Part shown: piece after piece, positions 14,130 through 55,851 of the stretch
Layout: every line of letters begins with the position of its first letter
Position numbering within the stretch: position 1 is the first letter of the stretch
NCBI GenBank assembly: GCA_963813715.1
Contig: CAWFAK010000007.1
Coordinates: 384,001 to 448,000 of the forward strand
DNA length: 64,000 nucleotides
Reading direction: 5' to 3'
DNA from: an uncultured Planctomycetaceae bacterium
GTDB lineage: Bacteria; Planctomycetota; Planctomycetia; Planctomycetales; Planctomycetaceae
Program-made: the position numbers and the translations under genes
The notes under the pieces: model-generated
What the model was told of the DNA's origin: nothing
What the model saw: the letters and a program-made list of their open reading frames with translations, nothing else
The model's database searches: none

Positions 14130-14299
14130 CCCGGCGAGCCCCCAGTGTCAGCTGGGGGGTGCTTCAATTCGTTTTCTTCCGCGTTTCCGACGGCGGTTCG
14201 ATTCAAAGGCGAAGCACCATCGGGCTGACGCCCGACGCTCGCCAGGCTGTTAGGCGCATGGCAACCGGCGAGTTGCCAGCGTAAGCTGGCGGGTGCTTC
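14130..14299. repeat. REP cluster upstream of the Y1 transposase
   Basis: Units at 14130-14165 (+), 14211-14246 (-) and 14265-14299 (+). Confidence 0.9.
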
Positions 14300-14324
14300 G
14301 ATCTCTGGCGCGCGCTCTTCACTT

Positions 14325-14888
14325 ATGCCTCCGCGACGAGGACTGCATCCCGTGGACCGCTGCTGGCTCCTCACTTGGACCACGTACGGCAACTGGTTGC
14401 CGGGCGACGAACGAGGCTTCGTCAGCGCAGTCCGCGATCAAACCGGCACACAAACCACGCACAACCGACCCCGCACGGAATACGACCGCGACCATCCCCA
14501 TCTGGAGCGCTACTCGAAGGCCGCTCAAAAGCTTGGATCGGTCAAACTCAATCGTGAGCAAGCCGCCGCAGTCTGCCGCCAGATTCAAACAACCGCCGAG
14601 CACCGTCACTGGAAGCTGTTTGCCGTAGCGGTCATGGCAAACCACGTGCACGTCGTTGTCGGCGTTCCAGGCGATCCGGATCCCAGCACGCTGCTTCGCG
14701 ACCTCAAGAGCTATGGTGCGCGAGAGCTCAACCGCATTTCGCCGGCGCACGATCGTCAACGTTGGTGGACGAAATCCGGCTCGACACGAATTTTGCCGGA
14801 CGCGACGGCAATCCTCGCGGCCATCCGTTACGTCGAGAACCAGGAATGGCCCCTGGCCCTCTGGATCGGCGGCGAACTCACAGCGTAA
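14325..14888 (+). mobile_element. HUH/Y1 (IS200-like) REP-associated tyrosine transposase (RAYT/TnpA-REP-like)
   Basis: LTWTTYGNWLPGDERG, HUH motif MANHVHVVV, LKSY, WW and catalytic-Tyr motif AIRYVENQ; REP hairpins on both sides. Confidence 0.85.
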
Positions 14889-14903: not shown

Positions 14904-15024
14904 CCCGGCGAGCCCCCAGCGTCAGCTGGGGGGTGCTTCAACTCGTTTTCCTCAGTATCTCCAACCGCATGTTCGCAAACCGAAAGATGAAGCACCATCG
15001 GGCTTACGCCCGACGCTCGCCGGG
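14904..15024. repeat. inverted REP pair (REPIN-like) downstream of the Y1 transposase
   Basis: Units at 14904-14939 (+) and 14989-15024 (-). Confidence 0.9.
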
Positions 15025-15211
15025 CGGATCAACTTCCACGATTGTTTCTGAGCCCGTAGAAACTTGGGGTCGGCGGGCGGGGTTCGGCGTGGTAGGGTCG
15101 AGAATATCGTTCTCAGGCGGAGCGCTCGGGGTGCGTCCGGATTCAGCGGCTGCGGAATCATGGCGTGCTGCGACTGGGAATGGGACGGGACGTGCGCCGG
15201 TGCGGAGGCGA

Positions 15212-15259: not shown

Positions 15260-15850
15260 GGTCCGGTGCCAGGGTCCCGTCGGAACGAATGTCGGGACGA
15301 AGTGCCGAGCCGTAGTCTTTGGAGGGCAGCGGACTTACGGCGGACCAAAGATCCGGTCCGGACACTTTCTCTTGAAAGGGACCAAGGCGGGACGGGACTG
15401 GTCGGTGCCGGTCCCGCTACAATTTCAAACGGTCGGCAGGTTTGGTGGGCAGTGACTACGGCGGACGAAGTCCGTCCGGACACTGTCCAAGGGGCCCGGA
15501 GATGGGACCGGACTCGACATTGGGACGGGATCGACAAAGTGGGACGGGACTCGAACGGATTGTAGCACCAAGTCACCAAGGACACCAAGGAAATTTCCGA
15601 TCTGCGACTGCTGCTAAACTTGGTGTCTTGGTGACTTGGTGGTTAAGAACTCCGGCAGGACTCGGTCCCGGTCCTGGGTCCGGTCCCGTCTTAACAATCC
15701 GAATGAGTCCGGCCGTAGTCTTTGCCCGGCACTGACTTACGGCGGACCAATGTCCGGTCCGGACACTTTCAGTGGAAAGGGACCGCAGGCGGGACCGGAC
15801 TCGGACATTGGAACAGGATTGGGACCGACACGGCTCGGAACAAGAATCGA
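15260..15850 (-). repeat. three copies of a ~150-190 bp non-coding repeat, homologous to the 51-54 kb repeats
   Basis: CCGTAGTC-N13/14-GACTTACGG at 15310-15340 and 15713-15742 (decayed near 15435-15461); TCCGGTCCGGACACTTTC at 15352-15369 and 15753-15770; GGTCCCG / CGGGAC arms. Confidence 0.8.
15566..15646. repeat. inverted triplet repeat (CACCAAG)x3 ... (CTTGGTG)x3
   Basis: CACCAAG at 15566, 15574 and 15583; CTTGGTG at 15619, 15627 and 15635, then GTTAA. Confidence 0.85.
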
Positions 15851-49339: not shown

Positions 49340-50983
49340 GTGCGGCGCGCGTCGGGGCGATTCTTGGTGTCAGTCTCAGCTTGGGCGCTGTTCGGCCTGA
49401 TCGGTTGTTTCGCTTTGGTTGGAGCCATGTTGCCGAGCATCGACCTCCGCGCAGCAGGCCGCACCCGCAAACCGCTGAAAGACACGGGCGATGATGAGCC
49501 GCTCGTCGCTGACTTTCAGACCCGCGACTATTCTCCCGCGGAAAAATCCGGTCCGGCCGCAAAGGGCAGCACTCCCGCGGTCACCAATCCGGAGGAAGGG
49601 CTCGCGATTCGAGACGTCGTGCCGGTGACGGGCCAGGAGTATCCCGTCGACCTTTCGACCGTGCTGCAACTCGCCCAGGTCCAGAATCCGACCATCGCGC
49701 TCGGTCGCGAGGCCATTCAAGAAGCGCTGGCGCTGCAGCTGCAGGCCCGCGGCATGCTGCTCCCCTCGCTGAACGCCGGCACGATGTATCACCTGCACCA
49801 GGGGAACTTGCAGGAAGCCGACGGCCAGATCCTCAAAGTCGAGGAACAGTCGATCTACTTCGGCGGCGGCGACTGGACCGTCGGTTCGCAGACGGTGGCC
49901 ATCCCGGCCGTGCACATCTTCGGACACCTGGGCGACGCCTACTTCGCTCCCCTGGTCGCAACGCAGGTCGTCGCGAGCCGAACAGCGTCGTCGCGGGCCA
50001 TCGAGAACAGCAGTTTGCTCGACGTCACGAGCCGATACCTGGCGCTCGTCGGCGCCGAGGGAGAGCTGTACGCGATCCGTAAATCCGAGGAAGGCTTGAT
50101 GCAGGTGGTGCGGGCCACGGCCGCCTTCGCCAAGACCGGTCAGGGACGCGTCGGCGACGCCAACCGCTCGCGCACGCAGGCCCTCTTGCTGCACGCGCAA
50201 GAGATGCAGGCTCAGGAGAACCTGGCCGTCGCCGCGGCCGAACTGGCACGCACGCTCAATCTCGATCCGTCCGTGCGACTGCGGACGCCGGCCGGGATGA
50301 TCGAGGTCGTGCAGCTGGTCGACCCGGGCTATCGAGTCGAACAGCTCGTGCCGATGGCGCTCACCGCTCGCCCGGAGATTTCGGCCGCGGCCGCCGACGT
50401 TTCGGCCGCGGACTATCGCCTTCAGGCCGAATGCCTGCGGCCCTGGTTGCCCGTCATCTCCGTCGGCGTGAGCGCGGGGGGCTTTGGCGGCGGCGGTACC
50501 CAAGGAGGCGACGACGCGCTGTTTCAACACGTCGGCGGACGCGCCGATTTCGACGTCTACGCCTTCTGGACGCTGCAGAACATGGGCGTCGGGAACGCGG
50601 CCCTGCAGAAGGAAGAACGCAGCCACCGCGACGACGCCATCGCGCGACGCGGGCTCGTTGCCAACCGGGTCGGACGCGAGGTGACCGATGCGTTCGTCCT
50701 CTCCGAGCGTCGCCGGCAAGAACTCGATTTCGCCATGCGGCGTCTGAAGACGGCCGCGGACGGCGCCCGCGAGGAAATCGCGCGAACGCGCGGCGGCGAG
50801 GCGCTGCCTCTCGAGGCGATCAACAGCGTCAACCTGCTGACCGACGCCCGGCAGGACCTCGTGCGAGCGATCGTCGCCTACGACCTGGCACAGTTCCAAC
50901 TGTTCGTTGCGATCGGCGAAACACCCCAAGCCGCCCTCCCCGACCCGAAACGCTCCGGTCCGGTGAGTGAGGAAGGTCACTAA
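49340..50983 (+). CDS. TolC-family outer membrane protein (paralogue 3)
   Basis: LLPSLNAG, LTARPEI and AIVAYDLAQFQLFVAIG motifs. The start is uncertain. Confidence 0.8.
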   Translation: MRRASGRFLVSVSAWALFGLIGCFALVGAMLPSIDLRAAGRTRKPLKDTGDDEPLVADFQTRDYSPAEKSGPAAKGSTPAVTNPEEGLAIRDVVPVTGQEYPVDLSTVLQLAQVQNPTIALGREAIQEALALQLQARGMLLPSLNAGTMYHLHQGNLQEADGQILKVEEQSIYFGGGDWTVGSQTVAIPAVHIFGHLGDAYFAPLVATQVVASRTASSRAIENSSLLDVTSRYLALVGAEGELYAIRKSEEGLMQVVRATAAFAKTGQGRVGDANRSRTQALLLHAQEMQAQENLAVAAAELARTLNLDPSVRLRTPAGMIEVVQLVDPGYRVEQLVPMALTARPEISAAAADVSAADYRLQAECLRPWLPVISVGVSAGGFGGGGTQGGDDALFQHVGGRADFDVYAFWTLQNMGVGNAALQKEERSHRDDAIARRGLVANRVGREVTDAFVLSERRRQELDFAMRRLKTAADGAREEIARTRGGEALPLEAINSVNLLTDARQDLVRAIVAYDLAQFQLFVAIGETPQAALPDPKRSGPVSEEGH

Positions 50984-51103
50984 CTCGCCGCCCGAACGGT
51001 TCGCCCACTCGCCGGCACTGTAGTGGAGCTTCCACGGGGTGGCTGCGGTAGAGCCGTCAGGCTCGCCCCAGGTCTGCAATCGCCGGTTTCCTTGTTCAAA
51101 TGA

Positions 51104-51447
51104 CGGAATTATGCACTAAACAAAGCCGACCCTATTGGTTGGGATAGCCGCGGTATTCCAGTTCGCCACGCTGTTGCAGTGCGGGTAGCAGCGTGGCGAC
51201 ACAGCCGGAGAGTAAGGCTAGGCCGATCACGACGCAGATAAAGACGCCGATGAAGGGCGGCCGTTTCCCAAAGCGGCGGAGCACCCACAAGACTGCCAGG
51301 GTAACGAGCCCAGCGACCGCTCCGTCAAAAGCCAAGAGAAGCAACATCCCCATGCCGTCATTCTCGCGGCTTCTTTGGACTCTTGGGCTTCCCGCGGAAC
51401 CATACTCTCGGGCCGCGTCTCTTTGGATGCGCCGCCCACTAATTCCG
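51104..51447. mobile_element. 344-bp non-autonomous gene-carrying element (IS1595-like ends)
   Basis: Terminal inverted repeats CGGAATTA (51104-51111) / TAATTCCG (51440-51447); direct repeat TCAAATGA at 51096-51103 and 51448-51455. Confidence 0.7.
51132..51353 (-). CDS. small two-TM membrane protein (passenger gene)
   Basis: 73 aa with two hydrophobic segments separated by RRFGKRPP; lies inside the 344-bp element. Confidence 0.55.
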   Translation of the reverse strand: MGMLLLLAFDGAVAGLVTLAVLWVLRRFGKRPPFIGVFICVVIGLALLSGCVATLLPALQQRGELEYRGYPNQ

Positions 51448-51702
51448 TCAAATGAAAGTGTCCGGACCGGATTCAGACTTCGTCCTAAACCGTATTCGCT
51501 GCGCCTCTTAACCCCGGTCTAAATCCGCATTGTGAAGATTAGACCGGACCGGACCTGACTCGACGTTTTGTGCTTTACAGTCGAGCCAAGCACGGGGTGA
51601 AGCTATGAGGAGCGGTAAGAGGTAGGCCGAGCCGGTTGGTGGTTGTGCTTGAACGTGGTAAACGGAGTTTGTTGCCAACCGTTTCCACAAAAGGACACCG
51701 CC

Positions 51703-52722
51703 ATGAAATTTGCCGGCTGCGACCTACACAAGCAGACTATCACGATTTGCGTCGTCGACCAATTGCGGCGGGTTTTGGAGCGTCGGACCGTGCGTTGTGG
51801 CGAAGAGCGGAGCATCCTCGCATTTTTCGAGAGGCTCGGGGAGTTCGAGGCTGTCGTGGAAGCGACCGCCAGCTACGAATGGTTCGTGCGATTGATCGAG
51901 CCCGTGGCCCATCGCGTGTTGTTGGCTCACCCCAAGAAGCTGCGTGTGATTGCCGAGAGCACGCGTAAAAGCGATCGGCTCGACGCGCAAATCCTCGCGG
52001 AGTTCCTGGCCTTGGACATGATTCCGACGTCTTACCGGGCGACTCCGCGGCAGCATGAGCATCGACGACTGGTGCGTCAGCGGGGCGGCGTTCAACGGCG
52101 ATTGACCTCCGTCAAGAACCGTCTGCGCCGCATTCTCTGCGACTACAACGCGGATCGTCCCAGTCTGTTCACCGTGGACGGGTTGGCGTATCTCGCCAAG
52201 TGCCTCTCTTGGGAGCGGATCGGTTCGCCGTGGATCAGATGGTCGAAGAGTTGCACTTCGGGCGGCGTCAGCTGCTGGCCGTCAACGCCCGGCTGAAGGA
52301 GTTCGCCGAGGCGGCGCCGCTTTGCGAGCAGGAAAGCGCGGACGCTGTTGCGGACGATCCCCGGAGTGGGCTTCGTGACCACCGAAGTTGTGCTGGCCGA
52401 GTTGGCAGACATTGATCGCTTCGGTTCGCAAAAGCGGGTCGTCGCTTACGCAGGGCTCTCACCGGGTCAACGCGAGAGTGCGGGCAAGAGTCGGGAGCTG
52501 CACCTGGAGAAGAACGGTTCGACGCTGCTGCGCTCGACGCTGGTCGAAGCCGCCTGGCGGCTGGTTCAGCACTCGTTACGTTGGCGTCGGATTTATGAAC
52601 GATTGAAGTTGCGCGTGCGTGCCAAGAAGGCGATCGTCGCCGTGGCCCGCCGGTTGTTGTGCCTGATGACAGCGATCTTGAAGACGGGCCAACCCTACTC
52701 GCTGAGCCAGCAACCGACTTAA
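51703..52722 (+). CDS. IS110-family DEDD recombinase/transposase (frameshifts at ~52205 and ~52345)
   Basis: GCDLHK, VEAT, KSDRLDA, TIPGVG, YAGLSP..RESAGK and KAIVAVARRL motifs; AAGGA RBS. Confidence 0.92.
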
Positions 52723-52779
52723 ATCCCTGACCTTGGCAGGAGAGCACAAAACAAAACATCGATCGAAAGCGCTGCGACG

Positions 52780-52965
52780 ACCCACAGACGACCCCGCCCC
52801 CGGCCATGAAGGCGTTCCCTCAAAGAGCGACCTTCGAAGGGTGAATGGGGCGTCTCTCGAAAGTCGGCTTCCTGGCGACATCGACGGACCTGTTCCAGAC
52901 CGTTGGTGATCCCGAATAGATGGTTGAGCGTACCGCATCGCCCAGATCACCACTTCAAACGCAAA
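52780..52965 (+). ncRNA. predicted bridge/seek RNA of the IS1111-group element
   Basis: Two stem-loops whose unpaired segments match the target (CCCCGGCCA 52798-52806, GGGTG 52839-52843) and the circle junction (ATAGATG 52916-52922, CTTCA 52953-52957). Boundaries are approximate. Confidence 0.75.
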
Positions 52966-53125
52966 AACCAACCCTTGACGCTACCCTTCTCATAGATGGC
53001 TGGGGTCGAGCCATCAGCCTCGCCCTTAGGTCCGCGACCCCACCGGTCTCGTGGTGCAAACGAAAGTGTCCGGACCGGGTAGTGGGGGCGTTTCCCACCT
53101 GAATTTTGGGGATTGGCACCGGAGT

Positions 53126-53349
53126 TCAGTGAACCCAAAAGCTCAGATACCATTCGAGCGCGGACCCAGCCCAAACAGACTGGCTCGCTAGCCAGAAGAT
53201 CGGTGCGTAGATCGCCTAACGGTTTCGTCGCTATCGGGCGACGTGACCAGCCGCATGGCCGGCCCGGCCGAAAGCGGATACAGCACGAAGAGTGCGAGCA
53301 TCGTCCAACAAATCCATGCCCGCTGCCGTCTCTTCGGTTCGTCGCTCAT
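53126..53349 (-). CDS. small membrane protein, paralogue of 2615..2932 (one frameshift)
   Basis: Manual translation: MSDEPKRRQRAWICWTMLALFVLYPLSAGPAMRLV... then, shifted, AIYAPIFWLASQSVWAGSALEWYLSFWVH*; GAGG RBS. Confidence 0.65.
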
Positions 53350-53443
53350 GCTGGCACCTCAGCGATTGGGACGGGACTTGGGTAGTGGGTGCGAGTTGTG
53401 TTGCTGGATGATCAGGCCGCTGGCGCGAGACCGCGTACGGTGA

Positions 53444-53854
53444 TCACAAGGAAAGCTGATTTAGCCATCTCGGGTGATCAGGATATTTCCCATACGGATA
53501 CTCGGGATCGCGAAAGCGTAACACGATTGGAACGGCCAGCTCATGGTCGGATTTCCAACGTGCCAACCACTCGCGCATTTCAAATTGTTTTCTTTCTTCG
53601 ACGACAAACGAAACCTCGACGGCGATGTACTGATGAAGAGTATCACTCACGACCGCCGTACCAACAACAAACCGGGTACCAGGATAAGCTTCCTCGAGTG
53701 CGCTATTCACCTTGGCGGCGGATCTCGCGACCGCAAATGTGATCGTGAAATAGCCGATCGCGACAGCGCCCAGGGCGACACAGGCTGCCGCTATCCAGGG
53801 ATGCCGCTTTAGGCGCGTGAAAAGGCCGCTGCTTGGCCTGGACAACATGTTCAC
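53444..53854 (-). CDS. hypothetical membrane-anchored protein (passenger gene)
   Basis: 136 aa with an N-terminal TM helix; more AT-rich than the host genes. Confidence 0.6.
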   Translation of the reverse strand: MNMLSRPSSGLFTRLKRHPWIAAACVALGAVAIGYFTITFAVARSAAKVNSALEEAYPGTRFVVGTAVVSDTLHQYIAVEVSFVVEERKQFEMREWLARWKSDHELAVPIVLRFRDPEYPYGKYPDHPRWLNQLSL

Positions 53855-54442
53855 AGTACCCCATTACCTCCGGACCGGATTCAGACTTCGCCCTAAACCG
53901 CATCCGCTGCACTTCTTAACCCCGGTCTAAGTCCGAATTGTGAAGATTAGACCGGACCGGACCTGACTCGGCGTTAGCCCAGCACTGAGATGGCTGGGGG
54001 TCAAGCCATCAGGCTCGCCGACCGGTCCGCGATTGCCGGTCTCCTTGTACAAATGAAAGAGTCCGGACCGGACCTGTTGCCATCCGATCACCGAAAGGCT
54101 CGGTGTCCGGCGTCAGCGCAACCCGGTCGGTGCCGACTCAACGCCTTGCGGCCATTTCATCCCCGCGCGCAAGCCGATCTCGCCTGTCACAACACGGCCA
54201 AACTCCATTCTGCCACAAATTGCCAACCAACCAAGATCGGTTTTCTACGCCGCTCAGTTTTCGCGGGCGGGTGGCGGGAATACACACGGATTATTTGCCT
54301 GGCGTGCCACGGTTGAGCTTGCTCAACCGAGCTCTTCACGGTTCAGCAACCGTCAGCACGAAGAGCTGAACGGCAAACCCAACGGAGGGCACCTTTTCGG
54401 AGCCACCGGCACCGCGTGCGATAGAATAGCTCGGGGGGTGAG

Positions 54443-55487
54443 ATGACAAGTTCGCAGCCAGGCGCATTACCAGACGACAATCCCGCCGCACCGCGGTCGA
54501 TCGGGCGTAAGATCGGATCGGTTCTGCTGGGGATGTGCGTTCCGGTTCCGAGAGGTAAGACAACCCGGTCCAAGGCGTGGTGGATCGGGAGACGGATCGC
54601 CTTGTTGTACCTGATCATCTTGTTCATATTCGCTTTTTTTCAACGCGATCTGATCTATCAGCCGTCGCGAGCCGACGCGATTGACCCGCGCCTCAGTGGG
54701 CTCGAACCGCGTCGCATCGAAGAGGTCCGCGTCCCAACCGCCGACGGGCTGCAACTCAACGGATGGCTGGTGCGCGCAGTTCCCAACGCCGCGCAACGCA
54801 CAGCAGAACGGTTCAGTTCATCCCGCCGTCATCTGGTTTCCCGGCAACGCGGGGCATCGTGGATATCGGGCGCTCGAGCTGGATCAGTTGTCGCGGCTCG
54901 GCGCGGACGCCTATCTCGTCGATTACCGCGGCTACGGCGACAATCCCGGCAGGCCGACCGAAGAGAATCTCGAGGCCGACGCTCGGGCCGTCTGGAAATT
55001 TGTCACGACGAGCCAGCACGTCCAGCCGTCGCAGGTCGTCCTGCTCGGCGAATCGCTGGGGGGCGGCGTGGCCACGCGGCTCGCGTCGGAACTCTCGCAG
55101 GCCGACACTCCGCCCGGCGGGCTGATCTTGTGCGCGACCTACTCCGGGCTGGCCGACGTCGCGTCTTATCAGTACCCCTGGCTACCGGTGAAGATGATTC
55201 TGATCGATCGCTTTCCGTCCGCGGAGTGGATCGCGCACGTCACGTGCCCGGTGCTCGTGCTGCACTGCAAAGCCGACGACACCGTGCCGTTCGAATCGGG
55301 GAAACGACTGTTCGACGCGGCTCCCGCGGTCTCAGCCGGTTCCGTCCCTAAGACGTTTGTCGTCCTCCCCGGCGCGCATCATATTCCTCTGTTCGCCGCT
55401 GGGGAGCCCTATCGGGAGGCCGTCAAAGAGTTTCTCGACCGGATGAGGCCGGCATCCGAGCCGGTGCGGTCGGCCGTGGCGCATTGA
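54443..55487 (+). CDS. alpha/beta hydrolase (ABHD13/Bem46-like), frameshift at ~54820
   Basis: FQRDLIYQP, FPGNAG, DYRGYG, GESLGGG, LHCKADDTVP and GAHH motifs. Confidence 0.85.
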
Positions 55488-55851
55488 GCACCTCGACGCT
55501 CGGTGCGTGGACGGGCAGCAATGCGGACGCAACTGGCATCACGGGCAGTGAGGCGACCTACACGTGGGGCGGCGCCGCGAAACGGAGCACCACGGCCGCC
55601 GCCGCCAGAATTGCGGCCGTGTAATTCTGGCCGAAGCTATCTGCCCCAAGTTCGCGGGCTCTCCAGGAATCCCCGGTCGACTCGTGTCCGGCCGGGGTTA
55701 GATTAGTGGAGCTGTTGGCGGGGACAACGTTAAATAGAACGGGGGCGTTCTGCACTCGGTCTCGCTGACCTGCGTGCAGGCGGCTGAAAACCTGTCAGTT
55801 TGAGCCGGTCGACCCTCATCCGCGTTATGGCGGTTGTCTGAGGCGTCTTCC

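Follow-up and report, generated by a model that had tools for sequence, protein, structure and literature searches.

What brings three unrelated mobile elements into one short run of intergenic repeats? The question is raised by a tandem repeat array in a 64,000-nucleotide stretch of DNA from an uncultured Planctomycetaceae bacterium (hereafter the window, G000:C7:384001-448000; the G000 assembly comprises 7.49 Mb in 18 contigs, with 63% G+C). The neighbours of the array are a TolC-like outer-membrane gene (49340-50983) on one side and an alpha/beta-hydrolase gene (54681-55487) on the other. An initial annotation, made from the letters alone, described it as a landing pad for mobile elements and went on to propose a gene-capture platform. 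The landing pad stands only insofar as the modules of the array hold the target sequences of three unrelated elements. The locus is likely one of nine copies of a lineage-specific mosaic intergenic repeat, similar to the bacterial interspersed mosaic elements (BIMEs), which forms an insertion hot spot by way of three target motifs.

The repeat pieces lie where the initial annotation had placed them, and the three unrelated insertions that it proposed are all real mobile elements, with the sizes of 344 and 791 bp both exact. A profile of the repeat unit (217 positions, from 8 uninterrupted units of the window and other loci) gives four nhmmer matches within the window, and the array is composed as follows.

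51020-51103, plus strand: unit A, first half up to the insertion (nhmmer match 51020-51104, profile positions 116-202)
51104-51447, no strand assigned: non-autonomous 344-bp element with terminal inverted repeats (TIRs), termed family 2, with ends CGGAATTA / TAATTCCG
51448-51597, plus strand: remainder of unit A (nhmmer match 51461-51600, profile positions 1-139, E 3e-40)
51598-52996, plus strand: insertion sequence (IS) of the IS110 family, IS1111 type, 1399 bp, with TG on both sides
52997-53077, plus strand: unit B, first half, GCTGGGGTCGAGCCATCAGCCTCGCCC...CAAACGAAAGTGTCCGGACCG (nhmmer match 52994-53078, profile positions 134-216)
53078-53868, no strand assigned: non-autonomous 791-bp element of the IS1 family, termed family 1, with ends GGTAGTGGGG... 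/ ...CCCCATTACC
53869-53987, plus strand: unit B, second half and linker (nhmmer match 53869-54072, profile positions 1-217, E 1e-60)
53988-54076, plus strand: unit C, a terminal half unit with the first half only (repeat comparison and profile search)
54077-54360, plus strand: conserved tail that closes the array, with its core 'T' at ~54150-54262 and an 84-bp hairpin of repetitive extragenic palindromic (REP) type at its end (54275-54358)

When the insertions are excised in silico, units A and B are identical at 165 of 188 aligned bases (87.8%), with an alignment score of 278 against 96.6 +/- 6.5 for 100 shuffles (z ~28), and unit C matches A at 73 of 86 bases and B at 70 of 85. The three units align once the insertions are removed, and the tandem array is thereby confirmed. 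The first half of unit A contains a REP-like hairpin, GGGTGGCTGCGG...GGCTCGCCCCAGG, together with CCGGTTTCCTTGTTCAAATGA; its remainder consists of a P module (TCAAATGAAAGTGTCCGGACCGG), the second half (51461-51567) and a linker with GGGTG at its end. The second half of unit B is 93% identical to 51461-51567 of unit A (the D1 repeat). Unit C had been described as lacking the second segment, and it is indeed a first half only, like the last unit of the other arrays aligned.

A search of G000 with the profile returns 39 matches, which make up nine arrays on six contigs, all intergenic, and two degenerate loci; copies are in the tens, not hundreds. The units, of ~205 bp, stand head to tail and contain three palindromic modules: a REP-like hairpin with GGGTGGCTGGGG at its start, the 'P' module CAAATGAAAGTGTCCGGACCGG, and a second half, highly conserved, that contains the CCGGTCTAA/TTAGACCGG hairpin. 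The corresponding palindromes are GGCTGGGG..CCCCAG, GTCCGGACCGGAC and CCGGTCTAA..TTAGACCGG. All nine arrays finish with a half unit, after which stands a conserved tail of ~230-300 bp, and the module order is P (h2 P)n T, with R84 present or not, at the nine loci and P...T without h2, the second half, at two more. Counted over the whole genome, the tail core T has 17 copies, the 84-bp tail hairpin 49, and the P motif GTGTCCGGACCGG, common to at least four repeat families, 75, and the hairpin foot GGGTGGCYGGGG is found at 22 unoccupied sites.

With all genomic copies collected by the profile, the family can be seen to be an insertion hot spot, as had been proposed: six of the nine arrays are interrupted, and at least eight insertion events fall within 4.9 kb of unit DNA in the 7.49-Mb genome. 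The several transposition chemistries that had been invoked are two, a DEDD recombinase and DDE transposases.

The first of the elements, the 791-bp member of family 1, has the left end GGTAGTGGGGGCGTTT...GATTGGCAC, the right end ...AGTACCCCATTACC and a 9-bp duplication, TCCGGACCG, at 53069-53077 and 53869-53877. A partner at G000:C8:490741-493662 has the same ends and duplication and encodes a 313-aa DDE_Tnp_IS1 protein (C8:490786-491724) and three other genes; consequently, the 791-bp element is a transposase-less, gene-carrying derivative. A Pfam scan finds no transposase domain in 51104-51447 or 53078-53868. All three transposases of family 1 exceed the Pfam cut-off of 24.1 bits for DDE_Tnp_IS1, with 38.8 bits for the 313-aa protein and 36.6 and 34.2 bits for the others, whereas the NCBIfam model transpos_IS1 gives 59.8 bits, below its cut-off of 100. 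Besides the 313-aa protein, two IS1-type transposases are encoded in an island at C15:100-113 kb, where a 3.19-kb copy duplicates CGCCCCGCA. The family 1 ends are GGTAGTG / GGTAATG, and 9-bp duplications flank all three complete elements (window, C8 and C15:105527-108717). Members of the IS1 family, as classified in ISfinder, have ends of the form GGnnnTG and produce target duplications of 8-9 bp.

The target of family 1 is unusually well defined. Both in arrays and at the non-array C15 site, the duplicated 9 bases follow GAAAGTG, and the canonical left ends in arrays (four of eight) all stand right after GTGTCCGGACCG in one orientation. The asymmetry of this target (GAAAGTG plus the 9 duplicated bases) accounts for the constant orientation, and selection is not needed to explain it. 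Family 1 occupies 4 of 26 P sites in arrays and none of 49 outside them (Fisher p = 0.012). Transposase-less IS1-family derivatives insert after GAAAGTG, duplicate the next 9 bases (TCCGGACCG in arrays), and are presumably moved in trans by IS1-type transposases of 313-363 aa encoded elsewhere in the genome. The 344-bp and 791-bp elements both have TIRs and a target duplication and lack a transposase, the features of mobile insertion cassettes (MICs) and of miniature inverted-repeat transposable elements. Judged by its sequence, the 791-bp element is a MIC in the sense of PMC3129680, which defines MICs and transporter ISs.

The 791-bp element also contains a second, inner left-end-like sequence from 53381 (GGTAGTGGGTGCGAGTTGTGTTG). 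Positions 53381-53403 have one identical 23-base twin, at G000:C7:949459-949481, with no recognisable right end nearby. The island at C15:100000-113100 consists of head-to-tail IS1-family elements and ~14 co-oriented small genes of the MSDEPK type described below, and it also contains two IS1-type transposase genes, a PIN/HTH pair and a gene for a sigma factor of extracytoplasmic function (ECF) type.

The second element, the 344-bp member of family 2, is flanked by an 8-bp duplication, TCAAATGA, at 51096-51103 and 51448-51455. The sole other member in the genome is G000:C17:726647-728214, an element of 1568 bp with a perfect 13-bp TIR (CGGGATTATGCCG) and the duplication CCAAATGA, inserted at the identical unit position. 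Both copies of family 2 therefore lie in arrays, at the same unit position and with 8-bp duplications, and the target that this second transposase-less TIR family duplicates, YCAAATGA, lies 5 bases upstream of the IS1-type site. In the C17 member, the genes are on the opposite strand compared with the window copy.

An insertion-free allele of the 344-bp element is present in one public run, X16. A contig of this run contains the unique left flank 50686-51103, with 7 differences in 418 bases, and continues into AAGTGTCCGGA, which is the uninterrupted unit with a single copy of the 8-bp duplication.

The C17 member lies in a 2.97-kb segment (C17:725938-728908; a small gene, the array, the family 2 element and the tail) that a hairpin borders on either side as ~50-bp direct repeats. 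The same locus of the sister genome G002 has one copy of that flanking hairpin and lacks the segment.

The third element is the IS. The initial annotation had it splitting unit B, and it does lie in B, not however in the body of the unit but 5 bases into its first hairpin, at GGGTG^GCTGGGG. Its transposase has the Pfam domains DEDD_Tnp_IS110 (3.8e-15) and Transposase_20 (4e-23) and is encoded in two pieces, 51703-52296 and 52348-52722; in the window copy one base is deleted at 52195, which may be genuine or an assembly error. The genome harbors eight copies with 97-99% identity, four of them with an intact ORF of 339 aa. The 3' non-coding region is 274 bases long (52723-52996), the 5' region 105 bases, and the subterminal inverted repeat CTATGAGGAG / CTATGAGAAG spans 10 bp with 9 of 10 positions matching. 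The joint 51597->52997, with a 2-base overlap, is found in three public runs; joints that skip the IS may derive from paralogous units, and they were used only for the length of the IS and the 2-base overlap. Read depth over the IS is ~10x that of its flanks in four soil/rhizosphere runs, which is compatible with eight copies and recent spread, and its 3' part (window 52486-53005) is 99% identical to G009:C203:1-521, from another species of the genus.

All eight copies of the IS are preceded by ...GGGTG and followed by GC(C/T)G, with a TG at either border, and six of them adjoin the hairpin GGCCGGG(G)CGCTC...GCGGAAGCCCCGG. The target, GGGTG^GCYGGGG, is the base of REP-like hairpins and occurs as GGGTGGCCGGGG and GGGTGGCTGGGG, the latter opening the REP-like hairpin of the unit; with the IS removed, the window site reads GGGGTGGCTGGGG, the consensus start of the first hairpin of the unit. 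The same target is used by the seven copies outside arrays, and for the IS the array is merely one more site with its motif. By our own tally of exact motif sites, 4 of 8 of the GCC type are occupied and only 1 of 19 of the GCT type (Fisher p = 0.017), and the insertion in the window therefore looks like the use of a second-best target.

A mechanism for this choice may be encoded in the IS. A candidate seekRNA guide, CCCCGGCCA (52798-52806, plus strand), is complementary to TGGCCGGGG of the usual target, and GGGTG at 52839-52843 is identical to the left target half; the two guide matches overlap at TG. Their order, with the complement of the top strand first, is that which PMC11187229 describes for IS1111 elements. 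The IS is probably guided by RNA from its own 3' non-coding region to insert at the foot of REP-like hairpins, and the GCT variant in the window would pair with the same guide via one G-T wobble, in which case the insertion would be an off-target event tolerated through that wobble.

Three passenger genes are carried by the two transposase-less elements, and had all been described as small membrane proteins.

51132-51353, minus strand: passenger open reading frame of 73 aa in the 344-bp element, with two hydrophobic stretches and GAGAATGACGGC just before it
53188-53349, minus strand: passenger open reading frame of 53 aa in the 791-bp element, MSDEPK family, with DNA paralogues in other arrays and in the C15 island
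53444-53854, minus strand: passenger open reading frame of 136 aa in the 791-bp element, with an N-terminal hydrophobic anchor

By the Kyte-Doolittle scale, in windows of 19 residues with a threshold of 1.6, the description holds for the 73-aa protein and for the 136-aa protein, with its one N-terminal stretch; the peak of the 53-aa protein, 1.57, is just below the threshold. The 53-aa gene belongs to a larger group: about 45 small genes, identified by eye among 98 matches listed, start with ATGAGCGACGAACCGAAG (MSDEPK) right after CGCTAGAATGACGGC, within a conserved start region TAGAAT-N6-ATG. CGCTAGAATGACGGC looks like a -10-like box placed for leaderless mRNA. Many of these genes encode a single hydrophobic helix with the motif YPLSxGP. 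The cargo proteins have no match above noise in Pfam, NCBIfam or PADLOC. The 136-aa protein has 12 homologues with 58-99% identity, all unnamed or 'hypothetical', the 73-aa protein has one (95% identity), and a 95-aa MSDEPK member has ten database matches, with the query protein itself among them. Over the 136-aa gene (bins 53417-53818), cover is zero in three of four runs and 0.6 in the fourth; no contig joins the flanks unambiguously, and the gap is not evidence that the gene is absent.

Transcripts and RNA structure were also considered for the repeats themselves. The CCGGTCTAA...TTAGACCGG hairpin noted in the initial annotation is present, but in variant copies it is broken without compensation. 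RNAalifold, applied to 21 units and 17 tail cores on both strands, recovers only this invariant CCGGTCTAA hairpin and no structure in the tail, and the idea of a structured RNA was dropped for that reason. Over 50500-54600, Rfam (E <= 1) gives one chance miRNA match only, and terminator-like sites, at 5 against 3.9 in shuffles, are at shuffle level. In two 'RNA' runs, the depth ratio at the locus (flanks ~3-6, IS ~30-58) is the same as in DNA runs, and these runs are consequently uninformative on transcription.

The repeat family is confined to a narrow lineage. Among 41 genomes searched, the unit is found in two of the same genus, G000 and G002, while the 84-bp hairpin is more widespread in the genus. 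An exact-pattern scan for the second-half core in 185,579 species genomes recovered only this sister metagenome-assembled genome, with a strict pattern that misses diverged copies. The arrays at C5:557 and C7:791 have counterparts in G002, and both arrays of G002 contain an IS1-type left end at the site used in G000; the inserts at this P site and their cargo are different from those of G000. There are no arrays in G002 at C5:657 and C17:726, and there is other DNA at C17:329. At the locus of the window, the sequence of window 55599 is reached in G002 within 11 bases after the outer-membrane gene, and therefore the whole 4.6 kb of array, tail and hydrolase gene is absent. Short CGCCGCC strings stand at both borders of the missing stretch (window 50983-55598), and copies of the hydrolase gene with 72-74% identity exist elsewhere in both G000 and G002. 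Units are more alike within G000 (85-94% identity) than orthologous arrays are between the species (74-84%, with flanks at 90-95%), which indicates concerted evolution.

Several results weigh against the view that a BIME-like repeat becomes a hot spot through three target motifs. No transposase for family 2 was found, and domain scans detect none encoded by either of its two copies, in a genome with a completeness of 82.6%. The guide match of the IS is 9 nt long and was assigned by eye, and 120 of 2000 shuffles reach this length; taken by itself it is not significant. Family 1 favours the P sites of arrays over the other 49, which suggests that its choice depends on more than the 13-base motif. 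At 205 bp and 21-39 copies, the unit is far longer and rarer than classical REPs, and of eight Y1_Tnp matches in G000 one (C3:72459) is flanked by a repeat of the array, which is the 84-bp tail hairpin only. The second half and the tail core are both very highly conserved, which hints at a further function.

The relation of these repeats to REPs is also touched by other parts of the genome. At C3:72305-73065, two copies of the 84-bp hairpin flank the Y1_Tnp gene C3:72459-72668, an arrangement suggesting that this hairpin may be a REP with its own REP-associated tyrosine transposase (RAYT). In the window, a RAYT-like Y1 transposase gene of 187 aa (14325-14888) lies between inverted hairpin pairs (14130-14302 and 14904-15026) that resemble REPINs (REP doublets forming hairpins), with P-module repeats downstream at 15352-15383 and 15753-15784. 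A different unit with the same GTGTCCGGACCGG motif forms another tandem array, of period ~120-200 bp, at C8:291007-291686. Within the array on C15, a 173-bp stretch that does not belong to the unit (C15:53434-53607) appears by eye to contain a long hairpin and, apart from it, the 3' end of a reading frame (...IIAGNDIYGGAYRLIAKV stop), and may be a captured gene fragment.

Could the array instead be a dedicated platform for gene capture? In such a platform, the array and tail would work like an integron without an integrase, with the tail as leader or promoter and with small-gene cassettes that are recruited at the P site in one orientation and whose expression starts from the array. All six IS1-type inserts (four in G000 and two in G002) do share one orientation, all MSDEPK-type genes in arrays point in the direction that leads away from the tail, conservation is highest in the tail core, which is always on the same side, and cargo differs at the orthologous arrays of the two species. 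One insert in G002 has as its borders, in place of a right TIR, duplicated ~60-bp segments with the P site at their end. However, family 1 also inserts outside arrays after GAAAGTG, an asymmetric target that explains the orientation, and the 8-/9-bp duplications and TIRs of the inserts are the mark of DDE transposition. The small genes have their own start region, and a promoter scan of 50900-54500 finds 0 sigma-70-like sites. The genes of the C17 member of family 2 are on the other strand, and three of nine arrays are empty. The best match to the integron integrase model TIGR02249 in G000, a genome of the incomplete kind noted above, scores 78 bits against a cut-off of 265, with no match near any of the arrays. 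The initial annotation likened the locus to an integrase-free array of cassettes, but all of the inserts are transposons or derivatives of transposons, each at its own short target motif. The borders and start regions of the inserts are unlike those of attC cassettes, which are promoterless and bounded by R''-L''...L'-R' sites with a GTTRRRY core, a comparison made without running an attC model. With the IS motif used at seven copies outside arrays as well, a dedicated capture function is unlikely, and would seem to be absent.

A second possibility is that mobile elements gave rise to the units themselves. The second half, ~83 bp between CCGGACCGGA repeats, would then be an old insertion at the P site, the arrays would have grown by insertion and unequal crossing-over, and the supposed platform would be debris. 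The position of the second half between direct repeats and its absence from every terminal unit are consistent with this history, as are the length and position of the duplication, which equal those of the IS1-type inserts. Array segments are also present or absent between the species, with the window locus, C5:657 and C17:726 lacking in G002, and a ~50-bp direct repeat surrounds the 2.97-kb segment at C17:726. On the other hand, the second half has, by eye, no terminal inverted repeats like those of either TIR family, and it is never found alone at the 49 non-array P sites, barring the degenerate loci C5:383051-384231 and C17:181851. We consider this origin of the units quite improbable.

A bolder proposal is just as improbable in our judgement: a cassette system serviced by transposases, in which the leader-like tail and the docking sites (GAAAGTG plus TCCGGACCG) would recruit IS1-derived mini-cassettes in one orientation, each with a leaderless MSDEPK membrane-protein gene, and the host would thereby keep a fast-turnover gene library at a few safe intergenic sites. 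If true, such a system would be functionally convergent with integrons while being built on DDE transposition. Finally, the recurrence of insertion sites could reflect copies of one ancestral interrupted array spread by segmental duplication or gene conversion, as the greater likeness of units within the genome than between orthologous arrays might suggest, but this is very improbable given that insert sizes (586, 791 and 2922 bp), cargo and flanking units differ, that complete copies have their own intact duplications, and that an empty allele exists for the 344-bp element.

The hot spot formed by a BIME-like repeat with three target motifs thus remains the likely explanation, and it has clear precedents. 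The discussion in PMC1525189 describes REP sequences as hot spots for elements of the IS3, IS110, IS4, IS256 and IS5 families, and among the cases given by Tobes and Pareja (2006; PMC1525189) are IS1397 and ISKpn1 in enterobacterial BIMEs and ISPpu9, ISPpu10, ISPa11 and ISRm22 in REPs. The array shares with REPs and BIMEs its nature as a mosaic of extragenic palindromes, the insertion of several IS families at fixed positions, with the IS110 family prominent, and the marking of strain-specific regions by the repeats. It differs in its composite unit of 205 bp, its tandem arrangement, its fixed closing tail and its low number of copies, in the tens. It differs also in having three elements at three adjacent sub-sites, two of the three being transposase-less and carrying genes, and in the presence of the IS1 family, which is not among the five families in the discussion of PMC1525189.

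A comparison with integron arrays and with clusters of attC sites lacking integron integrases (CALINs) is more superficial. Small co-oriented genes separated by imperfect palindromes are common to both, and the insertion of an IS1111-type IS in a palindrome recalls the IS1111-attC elements, whose targets are attC sites. In contrast to integron arrays and CALINs, the locus has no integron integrase, its repeats are not attC-like, its inserts have TIRs and duplications, and its genes have their own start regions.

The IS and family 1 also have known counterparts. The IS resembles IS1111 elements in its DEDD and Transposase_20 domains, in the 339 aa of its transposase, the length given in PMC11187229 for the IS1111-family representative TnpEc11, and in its subterminal inverted repeat and long 3' non-coding region; according to PMC11187229, IS1111 elements have a longer non-coding region downstream of tnp and subterminal inverted repeats of 11-13 bp. 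Other likenesses are one conserved target at all copies, no long target duplication, and short candidate matches in the non-coding region to the two strands of the target, overlapping where the crossover lies. The differences are a subterminal repeat of 10 bp with one mismatch, as against the typical 11-13 bp, terminal extensions of 3-5 and 1-3 bases, as against 7 and 3, and the by-eye nature of the guide assignment noted above. Family 1 agrees with the IS1 family in its single-ORF DDE_Tnp_IS1 transposase, GGnnnTG ends and 9-bp duplication, and with MICs in that full copies contain additional genes and derivatives without the transposase retain both ends and cargo. It is, however, only distantly related to known IS1 elements, its target is strikingly specific, and its cargo consists of small MSDEPK genes that appear leaderless.

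The locus is an example of the known rule that repeats of REP/BIME type are insertion hot spots, and it introduces no new recombination principle. Within that rule, it brings together three transposition systems, a DEDD recombinase (probably RNA-guided) and two DDE elements, each with its own address within 150 bases of one unit, and it extends targeting of the REP type to an IS1-family element. The window IS offers a natural near-cognate site (GCT for GCC) of the IS1111 type, which bears on the off-target rules of seekRNA and bridge recombinases. The locus also brings to light a family of mini-transposons with cargo genes, together with ~45 small, apparently leaderless MSDEPK genes, in a lineage of uncultured soil planctomycetes.

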